Part shown: one piece after another, positions 1 to 64,000 of the stretch
How positions within the stretch are numbered: position 1 is the stretch's first letter
Layout of the letters: each line of letters begins with the position of its first letter
Assembly (NCBI GenBank): GCA_013151745.1
Contig: JAADHS010000202.1
Location: 818 to 64,817 of the forward strand
Length of the DNA: 64,000 bases
From: Gammaproteobacteria bacterium
GTDB lineage: Bacteria; Pseudomonadota; Gammaproteobacteria; JAADHS01
Direction of reading: 5' to 3'
Notes under the pieces: model-generated
What the model saw: only the letters and a program-made list of their open reading frames with translations
Told to the model about the DNA's origin: nothing
Database searches by the model: none
Position numbers and translations under genes: made by a program

Positions 1-3000
1 TGCCGTTGCTTTTCCAATGATCAATGGCTGGGTTCATCTCCAGTACATCGCAGCGGCCTATCATGTCATCGATAGAACGAAACCCAAGCTGAGCCATAAT
101 CGAACGAGCTTCTTCGGCGACCAAAAAGAGGTAGTTGACCAGATGCTCCGGTTTGCCGGTAAACTTTTTGCGTAGCTCCGGATCTTGGGTTGCGATCCCG
201 ACAGGGCAGGTGTTCTGATGGCATTTTCGCATCATGATACATCCCAGGGTAATCAACGGTGCGGTGGCGAAACCAAATTCTTCGGCACCGAGTAATGCAC
301 CAATAATGACATCACGACCTGTTTTAAGTTGTCCATCCGTTTGAATGACCACTCGTGAGCGTAGATTGTTGAGTACCAGGGTTTGATGAGTCTCGGCCAG
401 CCCCAGTTCCCACGGTAGCCCAGCATGTTTGATTGAGGTCAGCGGTGAAGCACCGGTCCCCCCGTCATGACCGGAAATCAGAATGTGATCCGCTATGGCT
501 TTGGCGACCCCGGTAGCAATGGTGCCAACGCCGACCTCGGCAACCAGTTTGACGCTAATGCGGGCGCTGGGGTTGCTGTTTTTAAGGTCGTGAATCAACT
601 GCGCCATATCTTCAATCGAATAAATATCGTGATGAGGAGGAGGGCTGATCAGACCCACACCCGGTGTTGAATGGCGCGTTGCGGCAATCGTTTCATCAAC
701 TTTGGAGCCGGGCAGCTCGCCCCCTTCCCCAGGTTTTGCCCCTTGAGATATTTTGATCTGAATTTCATCGGCATTAGCCAGGTAATTAATGGTGACACCA
801 AAGCGACCGGAGGCGACTTGCTTGATGGCTGAACGTTTGCTGTCACCGTTACGTAACGGTATCCAGCGACGTGGGTCCTCACCGCCTTCACCAGTATTTG
901 ATTTGCCGCCGATACGATTCATTGCTATTGCCATCGTCTCATGGGATTCAGCAGAAATGGAACCATAACTGATTGCACCGGTGACAAAACGTTTAACAAT
1001 GTCACTGGCTGGCTCAACTTCATCAATCGGAATGGAACCACTGTTAACTCCGGTTTTAAAACTCATCAATCCTCGTAAGGTGCAACGACGGGTGGCTTCT
1101 TCATTCGTATGCTTGGCAAAACGCTCATATGCCTCTTTGCTGTTGGTGCGTGCGGCCAATTGCAAATCGGCAATGCTGGAAGGATCCCACATGTGTCGCT
1201 CACCTTCTGCACGCCAGTGATATTGGCCTGTATTTTCTAACTGATCGATTTTGCCAGTACGACGTAGTGGGTAACCTACCTCGTGACGACGCAATGCTTC
1301 TGTCGCCAGGACGGTAAAACCGACACCGCTGATGCGGCTGGCGGTACCGGTGAAACAGGTTTCCATCACCTCGTCAGCCAAACCGATGGCCTCAAAAATT
1401 TGTGCACCCTTATATGATTGCAATGTCGAAATGCCCATTTTAGCCATCACCTTGAGCATCCCCTTGGCCACCCCTTTTTGGTAGGCGGCAACAATCTTAT
1501 CATCACTGTTGTAAAATTCGCCTGGCAGTAGACCGTCGCGTTGTGCTTGCCATAACGCTTCAAAAGCAAGATAAGGGTTAATGGCATCTACCCCGAAGCC
1601 AAGCAGTAAGCAGTGATGATGGACTTCCGATGCTTCACCACTCTCAAGGACAAGACCCACACGAGTACGTTCATGGCGTTTCACCAAATATTGGTGAACT
1701 GCGCCGCAGGCGAGCAGACTGCTCACCGGAACTCGATCGGCTGCAATCGCGCGATCACTCAGGACAATCAGGCTATAGCCATCAGCAACGGCTTGAGCTG
1801 AGGCCGCACAAATACGTTCCAGGGCGGTGAGCAATCCGGTTTGACCTGCAGATTTTTCATAGGTAATGTCAATGGTTTGTGTTCGCCAGCCGCGATGATT
1901 AATGTGGTGTAATGCGGCCAGTTCCTCGTTGCGTAAAATCGGGTGAGGAATACTCAAGCGATGACAATGTTTATCCGTTGTTTCCAGCAGATTCGCTTCA
2001 GGGCCGATAAAACACTGTAGCGACATCACCACCTCTTCTCGGATCGAGTCAATCGCCGGGTTGGTGACTTGGGCAAAAAGCTGTTTAAAATAATCATAAA
2101 GTTGTCGTGGCTTGTCCGAAAGACAAGCCAGAGCGGCATCGTTACCCATTGAACCGACGGGATCGCGCAGTTCTTTGACCAAGGGTAACAGCATAAATTG
2201 CATCGATTCGGTGGTGTAACCAAAGGCGCGCATACGTTCGATCAGCGTTTTTTGATAGAATCCATGAGGTTCTTCAGCCGTTTTTAATTGGTGGAGATGG
2301 ATGCTTTGCTCATTAAGCCACTGTTGATATGGGCGCTGCGTGGCAAAATCATGTTTAAGCTCTTCGTCAGAGATCAGACGACCTTTTTTGAAGTCGATGA
2401 GAAACATGCGGCCAGGTTGCAGGCGTCCCTTCAATTTGATGTTTTCAGGGTCGATGGATAATACGCCGACCTCGGAGGCCATAATGACCCGATCATCATG
2501 GGTCAGATAAAAACGGCTTGGGCGCAGGCCATTTCTATCCAGCATGGCACCTACATAGTGGCCATCAGTAAAGGCGATGGAGGCCGGGCCATCCCATGGT
2601 TCCATCAGCGCTGAATGATAGTGGTAAAACGCCCGTTTTTCTGCAGACATGTTTTCATCTGCTTGCCATGCTTCAGGTACCATCATCATTATGGCTTCTT
2701 GTAGAGTACGGCCATTCATCATTAAAAATTCCAGTACGTTGTCAAAACTGCCAGAATCAGAGCAGTCGGGTTCAAGTACCGGAAATATATCCTTGAGCTG
2801 TTCACCAAAAAATGTGCTTTTAACCACACCTTCACGAGCGGTCATCGCATTCCAGTTGCCTTGGCGGGTATTGATTTCACCGTTATGGCTCATAAAGCGG
2901 CATGGTTGAGCTCGATCCCATGAAGGAAAGGTATTGGTGCTAAAGCGAGAGTGCACCATCGCCAGATGGGCTTTGTATTCAGGGTTGCGCAGATCTTTAT

Positions 3001-3684
3001 AATAGGGGAGCAGTTGGGCCGTTGTCAGCATACCCTTATAGACAATTGTTTTGGGTGAGAGGCTGCAAAAATAGAACATGCTACGCTGGCTCAGGTCTTC
3101 GTTGTTGCGGATTTGATGGGTACTTCGCTTGCGCAGTAAATAAACCTGGCGCTCAAATTCGGCTTTGTCTTGGCCTGATCTGGCGCTGATGAAAAGCTGT
3201 TCGATGCAGGGCTCAGCGGCTTTGGCGGTGGGTCCGATGCCCGCCGCATGACTGTCTACGGGCACGGTGCGCCAACCCAGCAAGTTGAGATCGTAGTGCG
3301 TTATCAGCGCTTCTACTGTTGCTCGGCAACGAACGCGTTCCGCTTCGATTACGGGCAAAAAAACATTGCCTGCTACGTAAAGCCCTTTTTCAGGTAGCTC
3401 TACCCCCAAGTCGGAGCGAGCGACTTTGCGCATAAATTCATCAGGTAGTGTGGTTAACATTCCAGCCCCGTCGCCACTCGTTTCTTCACAACCCCGACCA
3501 CCACGATGTTCCATTTGACAAAGAATATGACCTGCATCAACGATCATTTGATGGCTGGGCTTGCCCTTGAGGTGCGCAACAAACCCCACACCGCACGCAT
3601 CTTTTTCAAAAACGGGATCATAGAGCCCCTGTTTTAACGGTAGCGTCGTCATAGCCTGCTGTGAGTCTTGCGTTATCTTTTTCA
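1..3684 (-). CDS. gltB: glutamate synthase large subunit (partial; C-terminal ~280 aa lie beyond the window start)
   Basis: The minus-strand translation from the ATG at 3684 reads [63 protein letters not shown]..., which carries the GltB amidotransferase Cys (DACGVGF). The frame stays open to position 1. The window-edge residues align with the GltB FMN/Fe-S region (...[21 protein letters not shown]...). The ORF track omits it because it has no stop inside the window. Confidence 0.9.
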
Positions 3685-4002
3685 TAAACCGTAGCTTTTA
3701 CAATTAATTTATCCAGCCCCATTCAAGAGCAATCACCTCAAAAATACGAGGAAAAGGGCTAGGAATTATACTCGCGCCAGCGTTGACTTTCTAGTCCCTA
3801 CATTTGTGACAAAGAAAAATAGGTGCTTTACTCGTATAGAGAAGAAGGGTTTTTTTTAAGGTATTGTTATTGCTAAGGTTTTTGATTGGAGAAGAGGGGC
3901 TCCAATAAATGCCAAATTTCTGGCTTAGAGTTCAATTTTTAAAACGGGTATTGATTGGCATACTATTTTTCAAATCAAGCCATTGATATATTAAATAATT
4001 TC

Positions 4003-58331: not shown

Positions 58332-58494
58332 TGTCGTATTATTGAAGTTGGTGTTTCTGCAGTGAAAAGAAGGCGAATGATGGATTATTTAACGGAAAAA
58401 CAACGTTTCCGTACCCTTAAATTGTACTGCATGACCTTTGTCATCCCGCTTGGAAAATAAGCGGTGGTTTTCAGCTATATGGGTATGCTTAGGT

Positions 58495-58712
58495 ATGGGC
58501 ACGTAATAACTTTCCGTTTTGAAATTTCATCTTCAGCTCGTCTTTGTCTGTTCTTCAATTTCAAAACCTCGAAATAAGAGCGATCATTTCTGCACTTTGC
58601 TCAAAGCTTCCACGTCCTGCTCACGCATCTTACCTACATCCCTGTAGGCAATCAGAACGAACAAATACATGTTAAATCTGAACCCTAAAACGGGAAGTTA
58701 TTACGTGCCCAT
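58495..58712. mobile_element. Second MITE-like element (218 bp), 26-bp terminal inverted repeats with one mismatch
   Basis: atgggcacgtaataactttccgtttt ... aaaacgggaagttattacgtgcccat. It has no ORF and fills the intergenic space between the hydrolase gene start and the DUF533 gene stop. Confidence 0.6.
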
Positions 58713-58715
58713 TCC

Positions 58716-59746: not shown

Positions 59747-61570
59747 ATGAAAAAATCTGCGCTCATCAGCATTATAGGCATTATTATTTTTGCGGCTGTG
59801 GCCGGCAATTATTACCTCAATCAAAAAAAACCGACCATGGCTGAACAACCGGGAACACCTTTAATTCCAGAGCAAAAACAATTGCCTATGCCAAGTAGTC
59901 TGAGCTACGTACCGCAAGACACCTTTGCTTTTGCTGGCGGACTTGAGCTTTATAGTGTCGATGATCTGGTGACGATGCTAAAGTCGCAACAAAGCAATAT
60001 GTCCGACCTCACCTACGAAAAACTTCAAAAAGAAATACTTAACGATGAAGACACTCCTGTTGGATTCAAAATGCCCATGTTTACCCTGTTTGAATTAAGC
60101 TCCAGCGTAGAAAAGGATCCAAAAGCATTAGTAACACGGCTTGGGCTCTCTGATAAAGTAGACAGTGCAATTTATACCGTAGGCATGCTACCTGTTTTTC
60201 GCTTGAAAATTGAAAACACCGATAATTTCAACGCATTCATACAAGATATCGAAAAGAAAAATAATATTTTGGGTGTTGAGAAGAGCTTCGAAAAAGTGAG
60301 CTACCGCAGCTATACCTTCGACATTCCAGGTACAAAAAAACCAAGCGAAATAAGTTTCATCATCGCCGTACACGATAATTATGCTATTTTTTCAATAGAA
60401 ACACCGTTTGAGCGTGAGCATTACCTCTCTCTCGTTCTCGGTATAGACAAACCAAAAAAAGCTCTGTCAGATTCGTCATTGTTGAGCAACATCAGTACCC
60501 AATACAAACTGCACCCAGCCTATCTCGCTTTTTTTAATCACGTCGTGCTCACTAAGGCCGTGACCAACAGCTCACAGAATGATTTCGGAAAAATGTTGAA
60601 TGAGTTCATCGACCAGGACGGGGAGCACTTTCAAAATAAAGGCTTTGCGAATATTCGTACACCGGCTTGTCAAAAAGAACTGGTAGACATGGCGAAAAAT
60701 TGGCCTAGAACAGTGATGGGGTATACGAAAATTAGTCTGGATACTACCCCTCTACAAATGGATTCCCGAGTCCTTTTCGAAAGCAACAATAAAGACATGT
60801 TGGAACAATTACGCAGTTTACGTGGTTTCATTCCTGTGGTTTTGAATGACGCCCCATCAAGAGCACTACTAAGCCTGGCTCTAGGTTTGAATGTTGATGC
60901 GTTGCTTCCCTTTATTAAAAAAATCACCGCAGATATCACGGCAACTCCTTACTCTTGTGAACCGCTTAAAAAAATGCAATTGGCCATCTCTGAAAACCCG
61001 CAAAGTCCAGCTATTGCCATGGCCTCAATGATGCTTTCGGGCGTTAAAGGCTTGTCAATTTCATTGCTCGACATCGATTTTACCGCAAATGACACAGGCG
61101 AAAAGCCCGAGATAAAGTCGCTTGATGCCTTGATCACCTTGTCCACGAATGACCCATCTGGATTATTAGATAAAGCATTGGCCATGGCGCCAGCGCCATA
61201 TGATACGCTACAAGTGGCTGCCGATGGTCAAGCTATAGATTTTCCTATACCGATGCAACTTCCTTCCGAGCTGCAAACTAAAATCGCCATCAAAGGTCAA
61301 CATATTGTCATTTACATAGGGGGGGACGGAGAAAAAGCAGCAAACCAACTGTCCACAGAAGCCTTATCTGAAAATGGACTGTTTGCATTCAATATAGGCT
61401 ATGAAAAATACAGCCGAATCCTTAAAAAGGCAATGAACATACTAGAAGACATGGACGAAGAAAAAGCGGAAATATTTCAGTCTATGGATAGTTTTAATGC
61501 GGATATGAATTTTTTGATTGACGTAAACCAGTATGGGCTGGTTATTGATACTCAGCTAACTATTCATTAA
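59747..61570 (+). CDS. Hypothetical membrane-anchored or secreted protein (607 aa), no family recognised
   Basis: The N-terminal helix MKKSALISIIGIIIFAAVAGNYY is followed by a Pro-rich linker; the rest is hydrophilic. Codon usage is consistent, and it lies divergent to the DUF533 gene. Confidence 0.5.
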   Translation: MKKSALISIIGIIIFAAVAGNYYLNQKKPTMAEQPGTPLIPEQKQLPMPSSLSYVPQDTFAFAGGLELYSVDDLVTMLKSQQSNMSDLTYEKLQKEILNDEDTPVGFKMPMFTLFELSSSVEKDPKALVTRLGLSDKVDSAIYTVGMLPVFRLKIENTDNFNAFIQDIEKKNNILGVEKSFEKVSYRSYTFDIPGTKKPSEISFIIAVHDNYAIFSIETPFEREHYLSLVLGIDKPKKALSDSSLLSNISTQYKLHPAYLAFFNHVVLTKAVTNSSQNDFGKMLNEFIDQDGEHFQNKGFANIRTPACQKELVDMAKNWPRTVMGYTKISLDTTPLQMDSRVLFESNNKDMLEQLRSLRGFIPVVLNDAPSRALLSLALGLNVDALLPFIKKITADITATPYSCEPLKKMQLAISENPQSPAIAMASMMLSGVKGLSISLLDIDFTANDTGEKPEIKSLDALITLSTNDPSGLLDKALAMAPAPYDTLQVAADGQAIDFPIPMQLPSELQTKIAIKGQHIVIYIGGDGEKAANQLSTEALSENGLFAFNIGYEKYSRILKKAMNILEDMDEEKAEIFQSMDSFNADMNFLIDVNQYGLVIDTQLTIH

Positions 61571-61785
61571 AATCGATTTAAAAAATCGTCAGTTGTTCAA
61601 GTACGTGACGATCATAAGCAACCGGTCATCCGAAAATGTTGATCTGAAATAGAACAACCGGAGAAGGCGCCCAAGCCCTCTCCGTTTAACTGACGTCGTA
61701 CTTCAATCCAACAGGGGGGCGGTTCGCTTTAGCATAAGCTTGTATATGCACCGGATGAGTCATCATTCTTTTTCAGAAATGCGCT

Positions 61786-63045
61786 CTACTCAATATCGGC
61801 ATCGGGTAGACACTGCTCAAGAGCAAATAAATCCGTGACCGTTTCACGTTGCCGGATTTCATAGACCTGCTTACCGTCAACCAGAACCTCAGCGGCACGG
61901 GGTCGTGTGTTGTAATTTGAGCTCATCGTAAACCCATAGGCACCCGAAGAACGAATCGCCAAATAATCACCTTGTACTACGGCCAAATTTCTCTGTTTAC
62001 CAAGAAAATCACCTGTTTCACATACCGGCCCAACAACATCATACGTTTCCATTGCGATATCACGCCGTTGTAAAGGCACTATCTCCTGCCACGCTGAGTA
62101 TAAGGCGGGTCGTAATAAATCATTCATCGCGGCATCAACAATCGCAAATTTTCTGTCCTGGCCTGTTTTCAGGTATTCTATTTTAGTTAGTAGCACCCCT
62201 GCATTGCCAACGATCGCTCGCCCAGGTTCGATCAATAATTTATATTTACGGTCTCCTAAAATTCGATCAATCGCACGACTATAGTCTTGTGGTTGCGGTG
62301 GAGATTCATCCTGGTAACGAATACCTAAACCGCCTCCGAGATCAACATGATTTAAACTGATTCCCCGCAACTCTAATTCATCCAGCAAGGTCAACAATCG
62401 CTCTAATGCGGCTACAAAAGGCGCCGTATCGGTCAGCTGAGAACCAATATGACAGTCTACACCGAGGACTTCTATATGGGGCAAATTTGCCGCATGCTCG
62501 TATACTTCAATCGCATGATTAATATCAATGCCAAATTTATTTTCTTTCAAGCCCGTGGCAATATAAGGATGTGTTTTTGCATCGACATCGGGGTTAACAC
62601 GCAATGAAACCGGCGCACTCACTCCCAGCTCTTTAGCAACATCATTAACGACTTCAAGTTCTCCGTCAGACTCTACGTTAAAGCAGTAGATGTTTAATTC
62701 CAGAGCGCGCTTGATTTCATCACGTCGCTTACCTACACCGGAAAAAACTACCTTGGCCGGGTCCCCCCCCGCTGCTAGCACTCTTTCTAATTCACCAACA
62801 GAAACAATATCAAAACCGGAACCCAGGCGCGCTAATAAGTTTAGTATGGCAATGTTCGAATTTGCTTTTACTGCGTAGCATACCAAATGGTCTCGACCTG
62901 CCAAGGCATCATTAAAAGCATGCCAATGCCGTTCTAATGTCGCGCGCGAATAAACATAGGTGGGTGTGCCATACTTTTTGACTATTGTCGCCAGGTCAAT
63001 TTCTTCCGCAAACAAATGACCATTATGATATAAAAAGTGATCCAT
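61786..63045 (-). CDS. lysA: Diaminopimelate decarboxylase
   Basis: YGTPTYVYSRATLERHWHAF...CYAVKANSNIAILNLLARLGSGFDIVSVGEL... is a PLP fold-III decarboxylase; 419 aa. Confidence 0.95.
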   Translation of the reverse strand: MDHFLYHNGHLFAEEIDLATIVKKYGTPTYVYSRATLERHWHAFNDALAGRDHLVCYAVKANSNIAILNLLARLGSGFDIVSVGELERVLAAGGDPAKVVFSGVGKRRDEIKRALELNIYCFNVESDGELEVVNDVAKELGVSAPVSLRVNPDVDAKTHPYIATGLKENKFGIDINHAIEVYEHAANLPHIEVLGVDCHIGSQLTDTAPFVAALERLLTLLDELELRGISLNHVDLGGGLGIRYQDESPPQPQDYSRAIDRILGDRKYKLLIEPGRAIVGNAGVLLTKIEYLKTGQDRKFAIVDAAMNDLLRPALYSAWQEIVPLQRRDIAMETYDVVGPVCETGDFLGKQRNLAVVQGDYLAIRSSGAYGFTMSSNYNTRPRAAEVLVDGKQVYEIRQRETVTDLFALEQCLPDADIE

Positions 63046-63065
63046 ATTATTCCAAGTTTTATATA

Positions 63066-63209
63066 TTATATAGTGACTTGATTTTCAGTAATACTTTGCT
63101 CTTCATCATCTTCAGGCAAGTACAAAGGGCCTTTTTGACCGCAGGCTTGCAGAGATAAAACCAGAATCAGCATACCGATAAATCCAGGTTTAGATTGTGT
63201 TAGTAACAT
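63066..63209 (-). CDS. lptM: LPS-assembly lipoprotein LptM (YifL); not in the ORF track
   Basis: MLLTQSKPGFIGMLILVLSLQACGQKGPLYLPEDDEEQSITENQVTI. The lipobox LQAC plus the conserved GQKGPLYLP motif match LptM, and lptM immediately upstream of lysA is conserved synteny. Confidence 0.75.
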   Translation of the reverse strand: MLLTQSKPGFIGMLILVLSLQACGQKGPLYLPEDDEEQSITENQVTI

Positions 63210-63431
63210 GAGTTGTTATCACTTAAAAACGTGAACGGAATCACTTTTGCGTTGCTTATTTCATCAATTGAAACGGAAGTGATCCCCTCCCTTTAAATTT
63301 AAAATTATCAACAAATCTTCGTTTATTTTACCATGAAGAAACAGCAGGATGATATTGCTGGATTATACAAAAATAAATGGAAAATTGACCTTAGTTCCTC
63401 TACACTCTGTAAGGGTTGGGTAAGAGGGCGT

Positions 63432-63686
63432 ATCATGATGCCAAGCAAAGACGAGATCAACGCGGCTCTTGACCGCATCATCGACCCAGAACTGGGGCGT
63501 GGATTAGTACAACTGGGACTTGTCCATAGCGTCGAAATCGACGATAACATAGTGTATGTTGATCTACAACTTACCAGTTCGGCGTGCCCATTTTAAAAAC
63601 AGTTTATTGCTCAGGTTAAACGCCATGTAGGCTTACTTTCTGGTGTTGATAATGTTGAAGTTGAACTGGTATGGCCACGTCTCTGA
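63432..63686 (+). pseudogene. DUF59/MIP18-family (SufT-like) Fe-S cluster assembly protein interrupted by an in-frame TAA (63594-63596)
   Basis: AAGAGGG Shine-Dalgarno. The N-terminal part reads MMPSKDEINAALDRIIDPELGRGLVQLGLVHSVEIDDNIVYVDLQLTSSACPF, then the TAA, then the same frame continues KQFIAQVKRHVGLLSGVDNVEVELVWPRL* (63597-63686). Both parts are colinear with DUF59 (...LT.P.CPxxxxIxxxVxxxL...V.V.LVW.P). Confidence 0.6.
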
Positions 63687-64000
63687 CATCGACTATAAAT
63701 TCCTAAGTTACAGGCTATTTATTGAAATATTTTGATCATACTCTTTGGCTTTTCAGGCTTATTTTATAGTTAAAAAAGAGGCTTGATTGTAGATATCGAC
63801 TATTAGCGTTATTATGACTTAGGGATGGTACACAATAACTTGTACATATGGCACCCGGATTTAGTTTGCGTTGGCTCGTCCTGACTGAGAAAAAGTGCAG
63901 GAATAGTCGTTCTTATTTCGAGCTTTTGTGAAGAAAGAACGTGACAACGCGGGCTGCAAGATGTATAAATTATTGTGTGCCATCCCTTAAACTTACCGCC

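Follow-up and report, generated by a model that had tools for sequence, protein, structure and literature searches.

A probable recent nonsense allele in a short stand-alone DUF59 gene next to lptM-lysA

The DUF59 gene and its surroundings

Towards the end of the window (the whole 64-kb stretch of DNA that was analysed) lies a short gene of the DUF59 family (PF01883), which occupies positions 63435-63686 on the forward strand and is transcribed divergently from lptM-lysA (61786-63209). Its complete frame has 83 codons and ends at a TGA (63684-63686), is colinear with the proteins of two related lineages (P0001 and P0162, see below), and is interrupted at codon 54 by an in-frame TAA (63594-63596, forward strand). 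The stop lies within CCATTTTAAAAACAG, where it is read in frame as TGC CCA TTT TAA AAA, and past it the translation stays open in the same frame for 29 codons up to the TGA. Once the stop is masked, the 83-residue product aligns to the entire PF01883 model (positions 1-73 of 73, 71.2 bits, E 9e-20), far above the gathering cut-off of 23.5 bits; the part before the stop alone aligns only to model positions 1-49, with 57.4 bits. Because of the TAA at codon 54, the domain as a whole has no uninterrupted frame in the window.

A first-pass annotation of this DNA had reported that a single TAA at 63594-63596 splits an otherwise colinear DUF59 protein, and both the translation and the full-length Pfam match bear this out. 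Two of its details needed correction. The stop had been placed directly after the conserved Cys-Pro, but it follows Cys51-Pro52-Phe53 and so comes one residue later, while the count of 29 in-frame codons up to the TGA was right; and the gene had been drawn from 63432, but its ATG is at 63435 (MMPSK...), with the end at 63686 correctly set.

This ATG lies 6 nt downstream of a Shine-Dalgarno-like AAGAGGG (63422-63428, forward strand; read from the sequence) that is conserved in the relative L001. The deposited protein NOY73235.1 (= P0002), an 87-residue 'iron-sulfur cluster assembly protein', covers window positions 63333-63596 and thus carries a 34-residue N-terminal extension; comparison of the lineages indicates that the extension is 5' leader (63333-63434, forward strand) miscalled as coding sequence. 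It is out of frame in L001, through a 3-nt and a 1-nt indel, and runs into an in-frame TAG in L024. Since the frame varies among lineages, the upstream ATG at 63333 was rejected both as the true start and as the start of a conserved upstream ORF. Judged from these alignments, NOY73235.1 is a gene-calling artefact, in which a nonsense-cut gene has been given a false N-terminus.

The leader itself (63270-63434) is more conserved across the three lineages than are the synonymous sites of the neighbouring genes. A short ATG-started ORF within it shifts its frame or its stop position among the lineages, and for this reason the conservation looks non-coding, as might be the case for a promoter, an operator or a leader RNA.

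In the window the DUF59 gene is flanked on one side by lptM, lysA, a 607-residue ORF and a DUF533 gene; on its other side, a relative has a 40-residue ORF, a PAS/HisKA sensor kinase and a response regulator. The 607-residue ORF (59747-61570, forward strand) matched nothing in Pfam at E up to 0.1; a conserved counterpart of 610 residues in the relative (omega 0.135) makes it a real gene of unknown family. At the opposite end of the window, a frame of more than 1,230 codons (2-3697, reverse strand) runs off the window start, which is why the first 4 kb appear free of ORFs; its N-terminal sequence looks like that of the glutamate synthase large subunit, which we presume it to be.

The window also holds two MITE-like hairpin insertions. 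Copy A (63822-63986) has terminal inverted repeats GGGATGGTACACAATAA and TTATTGTGTGCCATCCC, is flanked by TTA on both sides and, as RNA, has a folding energy of -61 kcal/mol (z = -5.7). Copy B (58492-58715, 224 bp), with terminal inverted repeats GGTATGGGCACGTAATAAC and GTTATTACGTGCCCATTCC, immediately adjoins the DUF533 stop codon. The copies are related, sharing a core around AAAGTGCAGRAAT..TCG.TCTTATTTCGAG with 78% identity over 73 nt, and neither is found at the corresponding sites of L001. They had no match in Rfam, and no third copy was found in the window.

Codon 54 in related lineages

A search of 5.8 billion protein clusters returned an intact 83-residue orthologue (P0001) that is 96% identical to the window product and has Ser at the position of the stop. 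The presence of such an orthologue in related genomes excludes a chance juxtaposition. P0001 is encoded on at least 8 contigs, including those of an NCBI MAG labelled uncultured Chromatiaceae (GCA_964421045.1; L001/L003), a Logan assembly (L002) and a metagenome contig (L017). A third lineage, represented by P0162 (L024), has the same gene arrangement and also reads TCA at codon 54. Together, the two lineages other than that of the window (L001/L002/L017 and L024), with DNA identity of about 90%, have TCA there on at least 9 contigs from NCBI, Logan and JGI, all of which share with the window the order lysA and lptM on the reverse strand followed by DUF59 on the forward strand; the more distant P0009 has Arg at this codon. 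In the DNA alignment, the window departs from its relatives at codon 54 by one C-to-A change at 63595, turning TCA into TAA, and the next codon shows a synonymous AAG-to-AAA change. The first-pass annotation had proposed a comparison with orthologues, and it is this comparison that finds Ser TCA and an intact 83-residue gene in the relatives.

The TAA allele was seen in a single assembly. A second copy was not found among the protein clusters, among JGI metagenome contigs (searched by pattern, with N at variable bases) or in exact-product look-ups for the 87-, 53- and 419-residue products, and only Ser alleles turned up overall. Over the region the window and L001 share only about 90-91% DNA identity, so they represent different species and not strains of one.

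Over this distance, 9 synonymous and 3 replacement differences have accumulated in the DUF59 gene (omega 0.09); among its neighbours, lysA has an omega of 0.05 and three others lie at 0.12-0.14. The 29 codons after the stop are no exception: 28 of their 29 residues are identical to the closest relative, and they differ by 5 synonymous changes and 1 replacement, where neutrality predicts about one synonymous change per three replacements. These counts point to purifying selection on the post-stop codons through almost the whole divergence, and their conservation means that the stop is either recent or not real. The first-pass annotation had named a lack of conservation downstream of the stop as the observation that would count against it, and these codons give no such sign.

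With the third lineage used for polarisation, four synonymous changes (codons 25, 29, 55 and 63) fall on the window branch, along with the replacements H41Y and P83L and the stop. At codon 49 the window has Ser, where at least 90% of a 59-sequence alignment has Pro; all three lineages differ there, so that the direction of P49S is tentative. The branch total is three replacement-type changes including the stop, plus P49S, against four synonymous ones. This excess, which would hint at relaxed constraint on the window branch, is not significant when compared with lysA (p = 0.13), and we do not propose relaxed constraint.

In P0162 of the third lineage (L024, 1684-1935), the family-invariant Glu19 is replaced by Asn, and Leu78 of the last strand by Arg. 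Since replacements are also frequent in lysA on this contig (15 of 33 changes), E19N and L78R are not gene-specific evidence; instead of decay of this gene in particular, the cause may be poor quality of the Logan contig or fast evolution of the lineage.

Explanations for the stop

What the stop removes can be seen from the predicted structure of the intact orthologue. An AlphaFold2 model of P0001 (from 59 sequences) has a mean pLDDT of 92.8 and consists of helices at residues 5-13 and 54-66 and strands at 30-36, 39-44 and 73-78. Its best Foldseek matches in the PDB are DUF59 proteins, with TM scores of 0.8-0.88 normalised to the query, and include TTHB138, B. anthracis DUF59, TM0487, Rv1466/SufT, the ApbC N-terminal domain and CIAO2B. 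Codon 54 corresponds to the first residue of helix 2. According to the translation, the PF01883 match, the alignment and the model, the 53 codons before the stop (63435-63593, forward strand) encode helix 1, strands 1-2 and the T-x-x-C-P motif with Cys51; according to the translation, the substitution counts and the model, the 29 codons after it (63597-63683, forward strand) encode helix 2 (residues 54-66) and the last strand (73-78). D17, P18, E19 and C51 are invariant in the 59-sequence alignment and are all present in the window sequence. The 53-residue product accordingly keeps Cys51 and the D-P-E motif, but of the two helices only one remains, and of the three long strands two. A fragment without helix 2 and the final beta-strand should be unable to form the DUF59 fold, and we infer from the model that it is non-functional and the allele a null.

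We propose that the window carries an ordinary recent nonsense allele, a young pseudogene of a small accessory DUF59 gene, and we put the probability of this reading at roughly 0.72. The gene would be a lineage-restricted, 83-residue stand-alone DUF59 (FeS_assembly_P) gene, divergently transcribed from lptM-lysA and probably encoding an accessory factor for iron-sulfur protein maturation. A single C-to-A transversion in the window genome would have changed codon 54 from TCA (Ser) to TAA, so that translation would end in a 53-residue fragment that retains the conserved Cys without helix 2 and the final beta-strand. The outcome would be a recent loss-of-function allele. As in nonsense pseudogenes generally, relatives have an intact orthologue with a sense codon, and the stop takes away required parts of the fold. 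The proposal entails a gene dispensable to the window organism and a correct base call.

That such a gene could be lost is plausible in light of what is known of the family. DUF59/SufT proteins have been reported to act as auxiliary factors in Fe-S protein maturation (PMC4982691, PMC8593673, PMC9045647). S. aureus without SufT shows defects only under high Fe-S demand (PMC4982691, PMC8593673), and it is this conditional phenotype that makes the loss of a DUF59 gene believable; in M. tuberculosis SufT is essential (PMC4982691, PMC8593673, PMC9045647). A six-frame HMM search for a compensating paralogue found no second DUF59 in the 64-kb window.

The chief competitor, considerably less probable yet deserving attention, is that the TAA is a consensus, assembly or sequencing artefact, or a minority allele in the MAG consensus, and that the real gene is intact with TCA. 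The TAA is present in one assembly only, and the fully constrained appearance of the downstream codons is what an error would also give. Moreover, the C-to-A change and the adjacent AAG-to-AAA change together turn TTTTCAAAG into the low-complexity run TTTTAAAAA, and an A-run in the 5' leader is one base different in length from its L001 counterpart. The length of that A-run, however, is shared with the third lineage L024, and it is therefore not an error of this assembly. None of the five compared neighbours has a frameshift or a stop; lysA, the 607-residue ORF, the DUF533 gene and FSH1 are intact and colinear with the relative, so that the local consensus quality looks good, and the coding density of the window is normal. 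Substitution errors in a consensus are rare, and errors of the homopolymer type are indels, not substitutions.

It is very improbable that the 53-residue peptide is functional, be it by itself or as one half of a split protein whose C-terminal piece is translated separately. The fragment does keep the only strictly conserved cysteine of the family (C51) and the D-P-E motif, but a helix and a long strand are missing from it, and among the matches listed from two database searches there was no relative with a natural length of about 53 residues. A separately translated C-terminal piece is also unlikely, since the 29 post-stop codons contain no in-frame ATG, GTG or TTG; nor does a ribosome-binding site follow the stop.

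TAA is the ordinary terminator in the window. Of the 49 ORFs with 150 residues or more, 34 end in TAA, and among terminator tetranucleotides TAA-A leads with 11 cases; TAA reassignment or leaky termination was rejected on these grounds. The only tRNAs in the 64-kb window are tRNA-Met and tRNA-Gln(UUG), neither of them a suppressor, and an Rfam search of 60000-64000, carried to E up to 1, detected no structured RNA element. Both release factors recognise UAA, and we know of no programmed UAA readthrough in bacteria. Programmed readthrough or recoding that yields the full 83-residue protein is thus the least credible explanation: the 29 downstream codons are in frame and well conserved, as it would need, but every orthologue has a sense codon in place of a conserved stop, the codon is UAA and not UGA or UAG, so that the selenocysteine and pyrrolysine mechanisms do not apply, and TAA, TAA-A especially, terminates normally here. 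The first-pass ranking, in which a nonsense mutation or a sequencing error was likely and readthrough least so, is in line with the Ser TCA of the relatives, the conserved downstream codons and the standard use of TAA.

Comparison with known systems

The stand-alone DUF59 proteins of known structure include Thermotoga TM0487 (1UWD), Thermus TTHB138 (2CU6/3CQ1), the Bacillus anthracis DUF59 protein (3LNO) and M. tuberculosis Rv1466/SufT (5IRD). Like these, the window gene has a full-length PF01883 domain, the invariant D-P-E and the T-x-P-x-C-P cysteine, and its predicted fold resembles theirs with TM scores, normalised to the query, of 0.67-0.88. Unlike them, it is 83 residues long instead of about 100-120, is only 31-37% identical in sequence, and is interrupted by a stop in the window. 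The short form ends in ...LVWPR(P/L) and does not have the C-terminal (D)PPW...MSEEA...LG tail of most relatives. After codon 83 the terminator is TGA in the window and L001 and TAA in L024, followed by about 135 bp of conserved non-coding sequence; as the frame ends at codon 83 in three lineages, an Mrp/ApbC N-terminal DUF59 fused to a P-loop NTPase was rejected.

An exhaustive HMMER search over 1.84 billion representatives found only one other short-form cluster, P0009 (83 residues, 56% identical, ending in VWPDA, with Arg at the stop position and a PF01883 score of 71.8 bits); matches weaker than P0009 were at most about 50% identical. P0157 was rejected as a further member of the short subfamily, having 90 residues, 49% identity to P0009 and an unrelated context.

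With SufT the gene shares the domain family and probably a general role in Fe-S protein maturation. Its scores, however, are far below the cut-offs of the NCBIfam SufT equivalogs (63.7 against 143.4 bits for TIGR02945, and 48.9 against 202.6 for TIGR03406), and it is not beside sufBC: it neighbours lptM-lysA and a sensor kinase or, in a distant relative, cyaA. The criterion applied to SufT in PMC4982691 is a position within about four ORFs of sufBC, and no suf genes were found near the DUF59 gene in the window or in the loci of its relatives. The first-pass label 'SufT-like' is consequently apt at the level of the DUF59 domain and does not extend to the SufT equivalogs or to a suf neighbourhood. 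PaaD, the phenylacetyl-CoA epoxidase subunit, was rejected on the same kind of evidence, with NCBIfam scores of 51.1 against 180 bits and 28.4 against 108 bits.

The position of the gene recalls that of another small protein. In E. coli K-12 (L022) the order is cyaA(+), cyaY(-), lptM(+), dapF(+), so that cyaY, encoding frataxin, is convergent with cyaA and divergent from lptM-dapF; in Pseudomonas aeruginosa we take the order to be cyaA ... cyaY beside lppL-lysA-dapF. The short DUF59 gene matches each of these flanks in a separate lineage: in that of the window it is divergent from lptM-lysA, and in the distant P0009 lineage (68% GC; L018, 5001-8114) it is convergent with a class I adenylate cyclase gene (cyaA), with argH nearby and soxYZ upstream. 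The uncharacterised ORFs beside cyaA in L018 had no Pfam match. CyaY and DUF59 proteins are both small accessory proteins of Fe-S biogenesis, but they show no kinship in sequence or fold: PF01883 is not frataxin, and frataxin is absent among the 50 fold matches listed for the DUF59 model. A tblastn search for cyaY or cyaA in the window or related loci gave nothing convincing, and neither the window nor the compared loci showed anything frataxin-like in sequence. It is conceivable, though doubtful, that the short DUF59 is an in-place replacement of CyaY in a small group of Gammaproteobacteria, in one of which soxYZ adjoins it, that between them the lineages have it in both halves of an ancestral cyaA -> <- cyaY | lptM-lysA/dapF order, and that the TAA allele is a natural knockout of it. 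We regard the likeness to the cyaY position as a lead and not as a finding. It is the sole point of wider interest here: a short DUF59 subfamily at the usual cyaY site would, if real, suggest a testable functional overlap between DUF59 and frataxin.

Otherwise the value of the case is mainly one of annotation hygiene, in that NOY73235.1 ought to be marked as a pseudogene or verified with reads. In biological terms, another dispensable accessory Fe-S factor would have been lost, and its loss in one lineage is unremarkable.

The window allele resembles ordinary nonsense pseudogenes of bacteria in each respect: a sense codon turned into a stop by a single base change, an intact orthologue in close relatives, and as yet no further lesion. 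Nothing in these features distinguishes it from them. The difference lies in the deposited annotation, which missed the lesion and called in its place an 87-residue protein with a false start.
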